This document shows positions 38,241 to 44,401 of a stretch of 64,000 nucleotides of DNA, piece after piece; position 1 is the first letter of the stretch; each line of letters starts with the position of its first letter. This stretch comes from Cetorhinus maximus (lineage: Eukaryota): assembly GCF_964194155.1 (NCBI RefSeq), contig NC_135901.1:25482001-25546000 (forward strand), read 5' to 3'. The translations under genes were made by a program, and so were the position numbers. The notes under the pieces are model-generated. The model was not told the DNA's origin. It did not search any database and saw only the letters and a program-made list of their open reading frames with translations.

Positions 38241-38291
38241 ATACTTACCTGGCAGGGGAGAGACCATGATCATGGTTCTCCCAGGGCAAGG
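38241..38291 (+). ncRNA. RNU1: U1 snRNA 5' fragment (about nt 1-57, with a 6-nt loop I deletion)
   Basis: ATACTTACCTGGCAGGGGAGAGACCATGATCA------TGGTTCTCCCAGGGCAAGG vs human U1 ATACTTACCTGGCAGGGGAGATACCATGATCACGAAGGTGGTTTTCCCAGGGCGAGG. Starts exactly at U1 +1; truncated, no Sm site. Confidence 0.92.
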
Positions 38292-39795
38292 TCGTGGAGT
38301 GAAGTCTATAACCAATCGAACCCCATACCATGGGGTACCTAACACCATCCGAGTCACGGTGAAGGACAGCGAAGGAGGAGCACCCATGGATCGGGCCTTC
38401 TTCATCAAGAGGATCCTGTTGAAGGTGTGTGGTTTTGCAGCTGCGGAGATCTACTCCCTGCAAGACTTCCCCATTGCTGGATATTTCGACGGGACGTTCA
38501 AGCGAGTGGCAGCTTGCGTCAAGTTCCTGAAGGTGTTCGAGGAGAAGAGAGACCAACCGGAGATGAAGATCCTGACAGTGGAGCCACTCTTTGCTCTCCC
38601 GTTGCAACGGGACCGTGTGGTGACTGTGCATCTCTACAAATCCAACGTCCCTGTTGCTGACGTGCTCACCTTCCTCACCAGGTACGTCGACAAGGTTGGG
38701 AGCTGCACCGAGGTTAGAGACGCCTTTGGGATTTGGACATGAAAACGCCAGGTTAAGGTCATGCTCAAGACCGACGGTAAGGGAGCCATCTTACACCCTC
38801 CTTCCAGCTTCGCTATCGGGGGAAGCCATGGCTACCTTGTCTACGCTGGGCAACCCAAACTTTGTCGCTCATGCGGCAAGGCTGGTCATGTGGTGGCCAA
38901 TTGCAGCGCCACCCTCTGCAAGAACTGCAAACAGGAAGGGCACCAGACAAAGGACTGCAAACAGACTAAGTGCTGCAACCTGTGTGGCGAGGCAGGTCAC
39001 CTCTACAGGACCTGCCCCAAACGCTGCCTCACTTATGCGCAGGCAGCCAAAGCCAACGAGGGGGAGGCAGAAGAAATTCTTCGTGTCACTCCAACCACCA
39101 AGGCCCCCAGCGAGAACAATGGGACAAAGGAGGACAGGGAGAGAGACAAGGTGGAGGAAATGATTGAGGCAGCAGACAGCCAATCAACAGCACTGCCCCC
39201 TGAACCTTCCACTCCTCAGGACAGCGAATCAATGGAGGAGGAGGAAGCAGCAGAAAATCAGCAGGGGGAGTGGCAGCTGGTGAAGAGAGCCAAAAGGAAG
39301 AAGGGGCTAAGAAGAGACCAAGCCACTTCCCAGACAAGTGGCAAGAGGCATCTCCCATCCGACACAGATGACAAGGGCAGCTGCTCTTCGGATGAAGAAG
39401 TGCCAGGGCGGCACCGACAGAAGAAGCGGCAAAGCTCTAGGGAATTGGAGGACGAGACTCCCGAGCTCCAGAACATTGAAGACAATGAGGAGACCAGCGC
39501 ACCCCAACTTTGCCCACAACCTGAAGAGGCCAGCGCACCCCAGCTCCGGGAAGCTGGGAGCAGCAACGCCCCAGAGGGGGAGAGGATTGGAGAAGCTTCT
39601 CCAACAAAGGACATTTCAAATCCCGCTCTCTGCATGAACTCTCAAATGCCATCTGAGCAGAACATTACCAATGGGGAGGTTCAGGACATTTTCCTCAGCC
39701 CATCCAAAGTGAGGCAATTTGCGCACACTATGAGTATGAAGGAGCAGACCAAAGGTCTGGGACTCTCAGAGAAAACAGGTTTGGTAAGAGAATAA
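38266..39795 (+). pseudogene. Tx1 ORF1 (gag-like, ZCCHC3-like), one in-frame TGA at 38740-38742
   Basis: ORFs 38266-38742 and 38761-39795 are in the same frame; CRSCGKAGHVVANC, CKNCKQEGHQTKDC, CNLCGEAGHLYRTC. Confidence 0.85.
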
Positions 39796-42700
39796 ATGCT
39801 TTAAAATGGGTGTAAAGATTGTATCCATAAATGTGCGTAGCATTAAATCTACTACGCGATGTGTTGCGACCTTGGACTACCTTGCCAAGGTCAAAGCTGA
39901 CCTGTTGTTTCTGCAGGAGTGTGCGATTCCACACCTCAGCTCCTACAGGCAATGGTCACGATGGTGGACCCATGGGCCATCAATCTGGTCGGGCGGAAAT
40001 GACTCTCGTTCCTCCGGCCTGGGTATTCTGCTGCGGGGAGGCAACTTCACCATCTCCGAGGTTAAGGAGGTGGTGGGCGGGCGCCTCCTCGTAGCAGATG
40101 TAATGTACAAGAATGCTCCACTCCGGTTAATTAACGTGTATGCCCCATCACAAGGGGCCGAGCGGCTGGCGGTTTTTCAACAGCTCCCACTGCTGCTGGC
40201 GACCTCCAGGCCGGTCATTCTGGGCGGTGACTTCAACTGCATCATCGATGCGGCTGGACGATCCGGCAGGCCGACAGCACATTGGACGCTACGTCCAGGT
40301 TCCTGATGGAAACAGTAAAGGATGCCAAGCTGCACGACATCTTCAGCAACCATGCAGACGGAGCGCAGCGTAGATACACCTGGTCGCGGTCAGATGGGTC
40401 CATCCATTCCAGGATAGACTTCCTGTTTGTGTCCCGAGCATTCGCAGTCAGATCCACCGACATCAAGTTCTTCTCTGACCACTGCCTCCTACTGGCTGAC
40501 TGTCACTTAGAGAAAGACCAAAGGGTGGGCAGGGGGGCATGGAAGCTAAACGTGCAACTGCTGACCCCAGAGAACATTGAGGAGCTCAAGAGGGATTACA
40601 AAGGTTGGAGAACCGTGAAACCCCTCTTTGAGTCCCTGACACACTGGTGGGAAGCGATCAAGGGAAACATCAAGAGGTTTTTCATCCTCAAAGGCACCCA
40701 GAAAGCTAGAAAGGAACAGAGGGAAATGTCCCGACTCCAGAAAAACATGCAGAATCTGCTCTGGCTGCGGTCGATGGGGGTCGATGTCAAGGAGGAACTC
40801 CAAGAGGTGAAGAGCCAGCAAGCCTCGCTCTTTGCCTCGGAGGCCTCCAAGATCATCTTCCGTTCCAGAGTCCACTCTGTGGAGCAGGATGAGACATGCT
40901 CATGTTTCTTCTTCCAAAAGGTACACAGAGAGAGCTCTGTGATCTGCAGCCTGAAGGAAGAAGATGGCTCAGTAAAATCATCACAGTCCGACATTTTGAG
41001 GATCAGCAAATCCTTTTATGCCAGATTGTATGACGTGAAGCCCACAGATAGCACGGCCTCCCAGTCCTCCCTGTCCTCTATCACGGAGGTCTTAGACGAC
41101 AGTACACGGGAGAGCCTGGACAAACCGCTAACTCCTGACGAACTGACTAAGGCCCTTGAGTCCTTCGAGAAGAGTAAAACTCCTGGAAGCGACGGCTTGC
41201 CAGTGGAGTTGTATTCAGCTCTGTGGGGCTGGATCGGCCCAGACCTGCTAGAAGTGTACGAGAGTATGCTCCTGGCTGGCAGTATGTCAGAATCCATGAG
41301 GAAAGGCATTATCACCCTCATCTACAAGCACAAGGGGGAAAGAGAGGAAATTAGAAATTGGCGACCCATTTCACTGTTGAATGTGGATTATAAGATTCTG
41401 TCCAAGGTCATCGCCAATCGGGTCAAATCCGCTCTGGAATTGGTGATCCACCCTGCCCAGACCTGCACTGTGCCGGGCAGGAAGATCTCTGACAGCCTCG
41501 CGCTGCTCAGGGATATGATTGCCTATGTGCAGGACAGGGGTTGGACACTTGCCTCATCAGCCTGGATCAGGAGAAGGCCTTTGACATAATATCGCACACC
41601 TACATGGTGGATGTGCTCTCCAAAATGGGGTTTGGGGAGGGAATTCACAATTGGATCCAACTGCTCTACACTAATATCAGTAGCGCAGTCTCAATCAATG
41701 GGTGGGAATCAGATAGCTTTCCTATTAAATCTGGAGTCAGGCAAGGCTGTCCTCTCTCGCCTGTTCTTTTTGTGCGTTGCATAGAACTCTTTGCTGAGTC
41801 CATCAGGAAGGATCCAGGCATAAGAGGAGTGACGATCCCAGGCAGTGGAGGCACTCAGATCAAAGCCTCCCTGTACATGGACGATGTCGCCGTCTTCTGC
41901 TCGGATCCACTGTTGGTGCGCAGACTGATCCACATCTGCGACCAGTTCGAACTGGCCTCAGGAGCCAAGGTAAATCGTGGGAAGAGCGAGGCCATGTTCT
42001 TTGGGAACTGGGCTGACCGATCCTTTGTCCTCTTCACCGTCAGGGCTGATGGCCTGAAGGTGCTGGGGATATGGCTCGGAGGGACCAGGGCATGCGTTAG
42101 AAACTGGAAGGAGCGAGTGTCTATGGTGAAAAGGAAACTGACGCTCCCTCTCCATTGCAGGTAAGAACCTGGTCATCAGGTGTGAGGCACTCTCGCTGTT
42201 GCTGTACGTGGTGCAGGTCTGGCCCATTCCACACTCCTGCGTGATGGTGATCACCCGAGCCATCGCTTTATCTGGAGATCGAAAATGGATTGTGTCCACA
42301 GGGACGTGATGTACAAGCCTCTAGATAAAGGGGGAAAAAACGTGCCCAACATTGCCCTCATACTGATGGCCACCTTTGTGTGTGGCTGCATCAAGCGGTG
42401 CGTAGACCCTCAGTATGCAAACACCAAGTGTCACTATGTGCTGAGGTTCTACCTGTGTTATGAAGGATGAGTTTGGCCACACTGCCGCGGAACGCTCCAA
42501 GTAGTTGGACCGTGCCTAACCACCTGTCCCTCGTGGAAAAATTTATGCAGAGAAACAGCTTTGACCGCAAGTCCATCAGGCAGTGGTCGGCACGTAACGT
42601 CTTAGAGGCCCTGAGGGAAAAGGAGAGGGTGGATCCTGTGGGATGGTTCCCTGAGCAGGCTGTCAAAGTCATTTGGCAGAATGCCTCATCGCCAGAACTT

Positions 42701-43350
42701 TCCAACAAATACCAAGACGTAGCTTGGCTGGTGGTGAGAAAGGCCCTCCCCGTCAGATCCTTCCTACACACTAGGAGTCTCACCCCCTCGGCACGTTGCC
42801 CTCGAGGTGGCTGTGGTGGGGACGAGACCGTTGTTCACCTCCTTGTAGATTGTGCCTTTGCAAAGAGGGTCTGGAGAGAGATGCAGTAGTTTCTGTCGAG
42901 ATTTTAGCCCGAGCAGTTCTGTGACATAGGACTCTGTGCTCTATGGGCTGTTCCCAGGGACACACACCGAGACAAACATCAACTGCAGCTGGAGGATCAT
43001 CAACTCGGTGAAAGACGCTCTTTGGTCTGCCCGAAACTTGTTGGTCTTCCAGTGCAAAGAGTTGTCCCTGACCAAGTGTTGCAGACTGGCACATTCCAAA
43101 GTCCAGGACTACGTGCTGAGGGATGCACTAAAGCTTGGGGCAGCCGCTGCAAAGGTGCAATGGGGAAGGGTCGCTGTCTAAGACCTTTCTGCCAAAGTGC
43201 ACCGAGGGACTGGAAACTGTTTAGAACCCCTCAGGCTGTACATTTGAACATCTGTACAAATGAACATCTGCAAATGATTGTAGTATTCATTTATTGTATT
43301 GATGCACCTCGTGATACATGTTGTAAAAGTTGAACCTGATTGTACCTTTG
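38292..43350 (+). mobile_element. Near full-length Tx1-type (L1 group) non-LTR retrotransposon, inactivated
   Basis: ORF1 with three CCHC knuckles, ORF2 with APE endonuclease, RT and C-terminal zinc motif, then an AT-rich 3'UTR cut by a SINE at ~43350. Confidence 0.9.
39806..43181 (+). pseudogene. Tx1 ORF2 (APE endonuclease, reverse transcriptase, zinc motif), frameshifted
   Basis: SINVR, LQE, GDFN, RIDF, SDH (EN); WRPISLLNVDYKIL, GVRQGCPLSP, YMDD (RT); CPRGGC...HLLVDC. Split over ORFs starting at 39806, 40282, 41541, 42285, 42467 and 42936. Confidence 0.9.
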
Positions 43351-44401
43351 TAATGGTCTAATGGACTAGTAATCCAGAGACCTGGATGATTGTCTGGAGA
43401 CATGAGTTTGAATCCCACCGAGGGTATCTGGGGAAATTTAAATTTAATTAATTCATAAACCTGGAATAAATCTAAAAAGGCTGGTCATGATGATCATAAA
43501 ACTATCAGATTTTTATAAAGCCTCAAGCAGTTCCGAATGCCCTTTAGGGAAGGAAATCGGCCGTCCTTACCTGGCCTGGCCAACATGTGACTCCAGAACC
43601 ACAGCACTGAAGTGGACTCTTAAATGGCCGAGCATGTCATTCAGTTGTGTCAAAGTTCTACAGAAATTAATAAAACCAGACAGACCACCTTCAATGACCC
43701 TGCAAGGTCCTCCCTATAACAGCTGGACTTTGTGTCAATTTCTGTCAGATCTAGGGTTTGCTTTAACTTAATTGTAAAACGTAAGCCAATTACAATTGTT
43801 AGACTGAGCTGGGGGAGCTGATATAAAAGACATTTCAGTTCTGACTCACTACAGGATCATGCTGGTTACAAGTGTGCTGTCACGAGCTTCACAGAATTTA
43901 CTAAGTTAATCACAATAAGTACAAAATGCTAAACTTACCAAAGGCAGTGGAAACAGTCAGTTCACTTTGGAACACTCGCTCATGACTTCTGGCCAACTGT
44001 CATGTTCTGTTGACTGTAATCTATCTTCTTCCTGGAGCTGCCACTATGCTCCTGAAAGCTGGTGCTTATTAACTCTTTCTCGACACAGCCCCTGTGCACG
44101 ATCAATAGTGTTCCTGAACTCTGGTTCAGACGATGCATGATCAGTCCGATTGGTTTAGGTGGTGCGTGATTAGTTTCTGATGGGTCATCTACTGATGCCA
44201 TTTCCTTTAATCTCCTGACTCTCCACACCCTAATGTGTCAATAACTTGTGGGACTGTGTCCCTCATTATAGATTTTCCTGTCATTTCATTAAATTTTGTA
44301 GCTTTCTACTGAGATAATTGGATGCCTTAAGATGTTTTCTTTGTCCGCTTATTTGAGATAAGAAAGCATGTGGAGTCAAGTCCTAATGGTTAACACTTAG
44401 A

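Follow-up and report, generated by a model that had tools for sequence, protein, structure and literature searches.

Tx1-type LINE families with U1- or U2-derived heads are known from crocodilians together with the SINEU elements, and the transcription of such snRNA-headed elements has been named as an open question because snRNA promoters lie outside of the RNA that is copied (Kojima, 2015; PMC4494074). The crocodilian Tx1-Mar elements (Tx1-2_Crp, Tx1-2B_Crp, Tx1-4_AMi, and Tx1-11_Crp) consist of a Tx1 LINE with an snRNA-derived 5′ head, and both they and SINEU are described as exhibiting repeated addition of U1 and U2 segments, tandem insertions, and a poly(A) tail (PMC4494074). The shark family represented in the 64,000-nt stretch of DNA analyzed here (the window) resembles them in each of these respects, including the family-wide U1 or U2 head that is characteristic of snRNA-headed Tx1-Mar elements. 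It differs from the crocodilian elements as they are portrayed in that report in that its members are young and intact, with some residing behind snRNA promoters, and in that its head provides an inferred start codon for ORF1, a feature not described in the text of PMC4494074. Whereas SINEU is short, non-coding, and non-autonomous, the shark elements span 5.2-5.3 kb and contain two open ORFs. No description of start-codon capture from an snRNA was found in the literature searched, the scope of which excludes the Repbase entries and the supplements to PMC4494074.

A second point of comparison is Keno, a Tx1-clade LINE with an AP endonuclease that is found in U2 genes with a 3′ flank beginning at nt 39 (PMC4494074; PMC4640811), which is the U2 insertion site of both Keno and Utopia (PMC4640811). 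The same arrangement is observed at 12 of 12 promoter-linked loci of the shark family. The family does not, however, share the U2 specificity of Keno: a U2 3′ flank follows 1 of 40 sampled U2-headed copies, and neither a U1 nor a U2 3′ flank was found among the 86 U1-headed copies that have a 3′ end. Moreover, unlike Keno, the shark family enters a U1 gene at an equal distance from the gene start and carries a U1 remnant that separates its U2 head from ORF1. When Keno is compared by its description, the shark family appears to resemble a loosened version of that element.

The RNA of R2 elements is freed by their own ribozyme. Co-transcribed with 28S rRNA, R2 is similar to the shark family in relying on the promoter of a multicopy target gene (PMC4494074), whereas the shark family would use a Pol II snRNA promoter and likely yield a capped RNA that is translated from an AUG. 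Chimeric snRNA-L1 retrocopies likewise join a 5′ piece of an snRNA to a LINE body, but these are independent, dead events (PMC4494074), in contrast to the shark fusion, which is inherited and evolves along one lineage. Classification of the shark element as an snRNA-LINE chimeric retrocopy was ruled out by its fixed junction and by derived heads that track the tree.

The element in the window is a Tx1-type LINE on the + strand, and this copy is dead. Its assignment to Tx1 derives from a predicted domain layout in which an AP-type endonuclease and a reverse transcriptase are preceded by an RRM-type ORF1 with CCHC knuckles, and the closest named proteins are from sharks. ORF1 (38266..39795) encodes two ZCCHC3-type RRM domains, CCHC knuckles, and an acidic tail (PF23057, PF23058, and PF00098), and is broken by a TGA at 38740. 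This nonsense codon, noted in a preliminary description of the locus, is private to the window copy (1 of 152 copies compared). ORF2 (39806..43181), which encodes an apurinic-type endonuclease and a reverse transcriptase (PF03372 and PF00078), contains several frameshifts and stops. A PDB search returned zinc-knuckle matches only. The 3′ UTR (43182..43357) is incomplete and is devoid of poly(A); neither a target-site duplication nor the 3′ end of the window copy was found, with the sequence ending near 43357. Poly(A) tails and target-site duplications are present in sister copies. No U1 promoter motif was found upstream of the window copy. At positions 39793-39808, the ORF1 stop is followed directly by a two-codon frame and then by the ATG of ORF2, an arrangement by which translation of ORF2 may be coupled to termination at the end of ORF1.

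The 5′ end of the element is formed by a U1 snRNA-derived head (38241..38291) corresponding to U1 nt 1-57 less 6 nt. Homology to U1 stops at 38291 (U1 nt 57). The head matches Rfam U1 with an E value of 5e-4, which is under the gathering score because the head is partial, and Rfam at its gathering threshold gave no matches in the window. This head is family-wide, and it is common, together with its deletion, to thirty loci whose flanks are mostly unrelated. It is followed by a 10-nt leftover of the element's own leader (38292..38301), which now lies within the reading frame, and by the native ORF1 start-codon position (38302..38304), which is AAG in the window copy and ATG in 21 of 100 U1-headed copies. 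The putative ORF1 start codon is the ATG at U1 nt 26 (38266..38268), with an A at −3. The frame that begins there (MIMVLPGQGRGVKSITN...NTIRVTVK) remains open through the 6-nt gap and up to the TGA at 38740. The only other ATG upstream of 38386 in the window copy is also U1-derived and in frame; it is located beside the deletion junction (38272..38274) and is already present in host U1 (nt 32-34). The first ORF1 domain begins at residue 26, and the next methionine is residue 41 (38386).

Searches of the genome gave 132 matches to the head pattern and 557 matches to a pattern for the living, U2-headed subfamily. The U1-headed set, composed of the window copy and 99 other loci, draws on 77 of the 100 listed head-pattern matches, with 3 and 20 from two other searches; it omits most segmental duplicates, and one locus was set aside as a U2-head-U1 chimera. 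The U2-headed set comprises 40 of the 100 listed among the 557 matches, plus all 12 loci linked to U2 promoters, such that 152 copies (100 U1-headed and 52 U2-headed) were compared in all. Subfamily ages were taken as divergence from the nearest copies, with trees consulted alongside; the ORF2 tree, rooted on L143, is reference-biased and resolves old copies poorly, and ages were not taken from it.

Ordered in this manner, the family forms a ladder. Four copies have an undeleted head and a native ATG GCT (3.3% divergence), and 13 carry the 6-nt deletion (d6) together with the native ATG (3.2%). The window copy and L068, both of which have AAG, are placed among the d6 native-ATG copies (3.5%). 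There follow 45 copies with AAT at the native ATG position (2.7%), 22 with AAG (1.6%), 8 with a second 6-nt deletion (d12; 1.3%), 40 with a U2 head (0.4%), and 12 that reside in U2 genes (0.2%). The native ATG is lost in all of the younger subfamilies. Relatives in other sharks (P0002-P0005, P0014, and P0104) begin at about the equivalent of 38302, with N-termini (MAIT..., MAST..., and MATA...) that place a few residues before a conserved N-T-V/I-R strand. Judged from these sequences, the native ATG position is ancestral, and the window copy has lost this codon, as opposed to never having had one. Its AAG is common to one other copy, L068, a weakly supported pairing (0.93 and 0.32 in two trees, with 2 exclusive shared sites). 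As the window copy sits among native-ATG subfamilies, it may itself have used the native ATG. The preliminary description had held that no element-encoded ATG precedes ORF1, and had pointed to a family ATG near 38308 as evidence that would count against its proposal; such a codon does exist, at 38302, in the oldest subfamilies, and is absent from all later ones, for which the original statement holds.

In the living subfamily, the 5′ end consists of U2 nt 1-34 or 1-37, followed by 14 nt left over from U1, the last of which belong to the AUG. A pattern combining a U2 promoter with this head identified 12 loci, each of which has more than 1 kb of flank that is 99.9-100% identical to U2 genes. 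All 12 copies are 5.2-5.3 kb long, with a 520-aa ORF1 and an open ORF2; in all of them the first ATG is the U1-derived one, at +50 or +55, and U2 from nt 39 onward follows the poly(A). The copies are 99.4-99.9% alike and most have differing 3′ flanks, although 10 of the 12 are on small contigs and some may be haplotype duplicates. A dispersed copy (L156) includes 13 nt of U2 upstream flank within its target duplication. For U1, two patterns joining the promoter to an uninterrupted element head gave no matches. One U1 gene was found to be split at nt 39/40 by stacked elements, with a d6 head carrying subfamily-specific bases positioned behind the promoter. The 890 nt of U1 flank at this locus are 88% like current genes and contain an octamer-like element at −208 and a PSE-like element at −55; beyond the d6 head are younger insertions, a transitional copy in which a U2 head is combined with a d12 body, poly(A), and the remainder of U1 (nt 40 onward) together with the U1 3′ flank. 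At this one locus, decayed and interrupted, an element head is thus joined to a U1 promoter, a configuration that could also have arisen by a template jump in the course of one insertion.

The head is therefore likely to represent the transcribed 5′ end of a host snRNA gene, with snRNA promoters likely driving transcription of the family. A capped U1-promoter transcript had been envisaged for the window copy. This idea is sustained at the family level, by 12 intact copies behind U2 promoters and by one head behind a U1 promoter, but not for the window copy itself, which is promoterless and dead. As for the cap, a G precedes the element (position −1) in 33 of 54 full-length copies (24% in the flank) and in 25 of 75 truncated copies (22.8 expected), with p 0.002 for full-length versus truncated copies. 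A 5′ G has been considered a possible trace of a cap in work on L1 (PMC9341517); here it offers a hint only, with the G lying mostly inside the target duplication. Promoters of snRNA genes are external and are normally coupled to a 3′ box and to non-polyadenylated 3′ ends (PMC5493778). One intact element was found to contain no 3′-box consensus and a single near match. Contigs from three sequencing runs, the kind of which was guessed, covered 28, 26, and 0 of 30 bins along the body of one intact copy, head excluded, and do not bear on start site or expression.

An alternative is that an internal promoter in the head or ORF1 region drives transcription, in which case dispersed copies would be the sources and insertions in snRNA genes a side product. 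The predominance of dispersed copies, as reflected in the single U2 3′ flank among the 40 sampled U2-headed copies, accords with this possibility, as do the many copies that are intact (ORF1 in 35 and ORF2 in 34 of those 40) and the failure of two patterns to recover an uninterrupted copy linked to a U1 promoter. We nevertheless regard an internal promoter as unlikely, given that the copies in U2 genes constitute the youngest clade, that heads follow host variants, that one dispersed copy retains U2 upstream flank, and that no internal snRNA promoter had been reported as of 2015 (PMC4494074). Even so, this alternative leaves start-codon capture intact.

Relative to the genome's own U1 variant, the 6 bases missing from the head are flanked by a pair of TG repeats (nt 33-40). 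The deletion is spanned by a perfect 14-nt palindrome (38263..38276), which exists because the arms of stem I enclose a self-complementary loop remnant; perfect palindromes of at least 14 nt number 11 in the window. In younger subfamilies, a second 6-nt deletion removes the second in-frame ATG, and the hairpin is weakened, from −23.6 kcal/mol over 60 nt to −15.5 kcal/mol over 54 nt. The preliminary description had drawn attention to the palindrome, the frame-preserving deletion, and retention of the splice-site-pairing 5′ end. A model in which selection favored the deletion and palindrome as a means of preventing U1-70K from binding, and the pairing end was kept for a role, draws on the occurrence of the deletion in all later U1-headed subfamilies and on its removal of part of loop I. 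It is nonetheless improbable, as undeleted heads also spread (4 of 100 U1-headed copies), the end of the loop I deletion coincides with the family's insertion site in U1, the hairpin was later dismantled, and U1 nt 1-11 were replaced by the U2 5′ end in the living subfamily. The palindrome is real but neither rare nor retained in later subfamilies, the deletion preserves the frame but is not required, and the pairing end was not kept. Evidence from one locus suggests that the 6-nt deletion is a junction scar of re-insertion. The palindrome, the loop deletion, and the pairing end all look incidental, with no role needed. Among the promoter-bearing U1 genes found (L031-L049), most do not have the nt-26 ATG, and 11 of 15 read TTG; the captured AUG would therefore have come from a minor or older U1 variant.

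Because retrieval by head pattern favors intact heads, a fair test of reading-frame phase is provided by a pattern with a free gap of 30-60 nt. This pattern found 111 matches, and in 94 of the 100 listed the U1 nt-26 ATG is in frame with ORF1 (84 d6, 7 d12, and 3 undeleted copies). Three of the six exceptions belong to a side branch that is devoid of both U1 AUGs, two of these having the native ATG; of five side-branch copies without the nt-26 AUG, four keep the native ATG and three have a 1-nt shift. Across the comparison sets, the nt-26 ATG is kept in 93 of 100 U1-headed and 52 of 52 U2-headed copies. Following loss of the native ATG, ORF1 acquired 178 substitutions, scored as subfamily majorities, none of which creates a stop, compared with 23 stops among 664 private changes (Fisher p 0.007). 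Lineage indels between the U1 AUG and Met41 measure 6, 6, 6, and 3 nt, all in frame, as against 51 of 270 private indels in frame, while the leader upstream of the AUG varied freely (58, 49, or 54 nt). In 52 of 52 U2-headed copies the +4 base has changed from A to G, yielding a better Kozak context, and the U1 AUG is still the first AUG in the living subfamily. Frame is conserved rather than random across the family's 5′ junctions, and these observations support, at the family level, the initial proposal that ORF1 starts at the U1 AUG: its phase is kept, the native ATG is lost, Kozak context is gained, and it is the first AUG of intact copies. We infer that the U1 nt-26 AUG is likely the ORF1 start of the family, an assignment that is well supported at that level.

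Translation could instead begin at Met41/42 or at a non-AUG codon, leaving the in-frame U1 AUG as a bystander. Of the 152 copies, 149 retain Met41, which has a G at +4, and no amino acid constraint was measured on ORF1 (nonsynonymous/synonymous changes of 133/45 versus 454/187, p 0.35), which reveals no purifying selection at this level beyond staying open; ORF2, unlike ORF1, is constrained (53/70 versus 1036/403, p 2e-10). However, initiation at Met41/42 would remove the first strand of RRM1, as PF23057 starts at residue 26, a strand is predicted at residues 27-32 (local pLDDT about 60), and the next methionine is at 41-42. Relatives have Val or Ile at that position, the upstream AUG comes first and in a strong context, and 4 of 4 lineage indels located before Met41 preserve the frame, all of which renders this alternative quite improbable.

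In L223, ORF1 residues 1-120 reveal that the first RRM was fast-changing around the switch from a U1 to a U2 head. Across this switch, the ORF1 core exhibits 27 nonsynonymous and 6 synonymous changes, a pattern that is possibly adaptive. Among 155 proteins examined for U1-derived N-termini in other species, P0001 was the only case. In the annotated proteins P0001 and P0095, part of the N-terminus is a translation of the U2 5′ end, and these are probably gene-model artefacts over U2-headed elements.

That heads were added anew at each insertion by reverse transcriptase jumps onto U1 or U2 snRNA, and were never present in translated RNA, is very improbable and largely refuted by shared derived heads: template jumps onto snRNAs do occur (L126, L180, L182, L189, and L236), but the junctions are fixed, and heads carry derived bases, absent from 20 host U1 loci, that track the body tree.

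We consider it highly probable that the family inserts approximately 38-40 nt into U1 and U2 genes, likely using their promoters and likely starting ORF1 at the captured U1 AUG. Source copies would reside within arrays of snRNA genes and share in the turnover of those arrays. Element RNA would begin at snRNA nt 1, contain neither the Sm site nor the 3′ box, be capped, and be translated; scanning ribosomes would meet the U1 AUG first, rendering the native ATG redundant. Dispersed copies, including the window copy, would be promoterless and would decay. Changes in head length would represent scars left at the junction by re-insertion, and those located past the AUG would be tolerated only as multiples of three. 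When the lineage moved from U1 to U2 genes, the 14-nt U1 remnant would have been kept because it carries the start codon. That an active LINE lineage has fixed a triplet of a spliceosomal RNA as its ORF1 start, and persists by moving from one kind of snRNA promoter to another (first U1, later U2), is in our judgment probable.

The intact copies behind U2 promoters make the transcription of snRNA-headed elements directly testable, and offer a natural experiment on the capacity of an snRNA promoter to produce a long mRNA that is translated. If the proposed history is true, an snRNA promoter can generate a 5-kb RNA that is capped, polyadenylated, and translated, and the genome keeps every step, showing how snRNA-headed elements such as SINEU come to be transcribed. 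The family would also provide a stepwise, dated record of a passage from non-coding to coding sequence, in which a triplet was captured as a start codon, the native ATG was lost, and Kozak context was gained later, and it offers young, intact elements for the study of site choice near Pol II starts.

Several additional arrangements were observed among the copies. Nine copies of approximately 1.8 kb (L058, L075, L077, L084, L097, L116, L128, L130, and L144) contain a U1 head and ORF1 without ORF2; with mostly identical breakpoints, the native ATG, and mixed head types, they form a non-autonomous subfamily. A composite retrocopy (L126:975-1230) unites a U2 5′ piece, an element head, and a full U1 within one target duplication. 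One young copy (L160) is inserted ahead of the 3′ half of U1, in this case not at nt 40. Among the 138 copies that have a 3′ end, 6 (L102, L168, L169, L172, L178, and L180) share a recurrent target flank that is neither U1 nor U2; this differs from Mariner-N4_AMi, the target for which crocodilian Tx1-Mar elements have a preference. Elements of the family often insert into other family copies, and at L183-L185 and L238-L239 several are stacked head to tail at a single site, where the target duplications become progressively longer.
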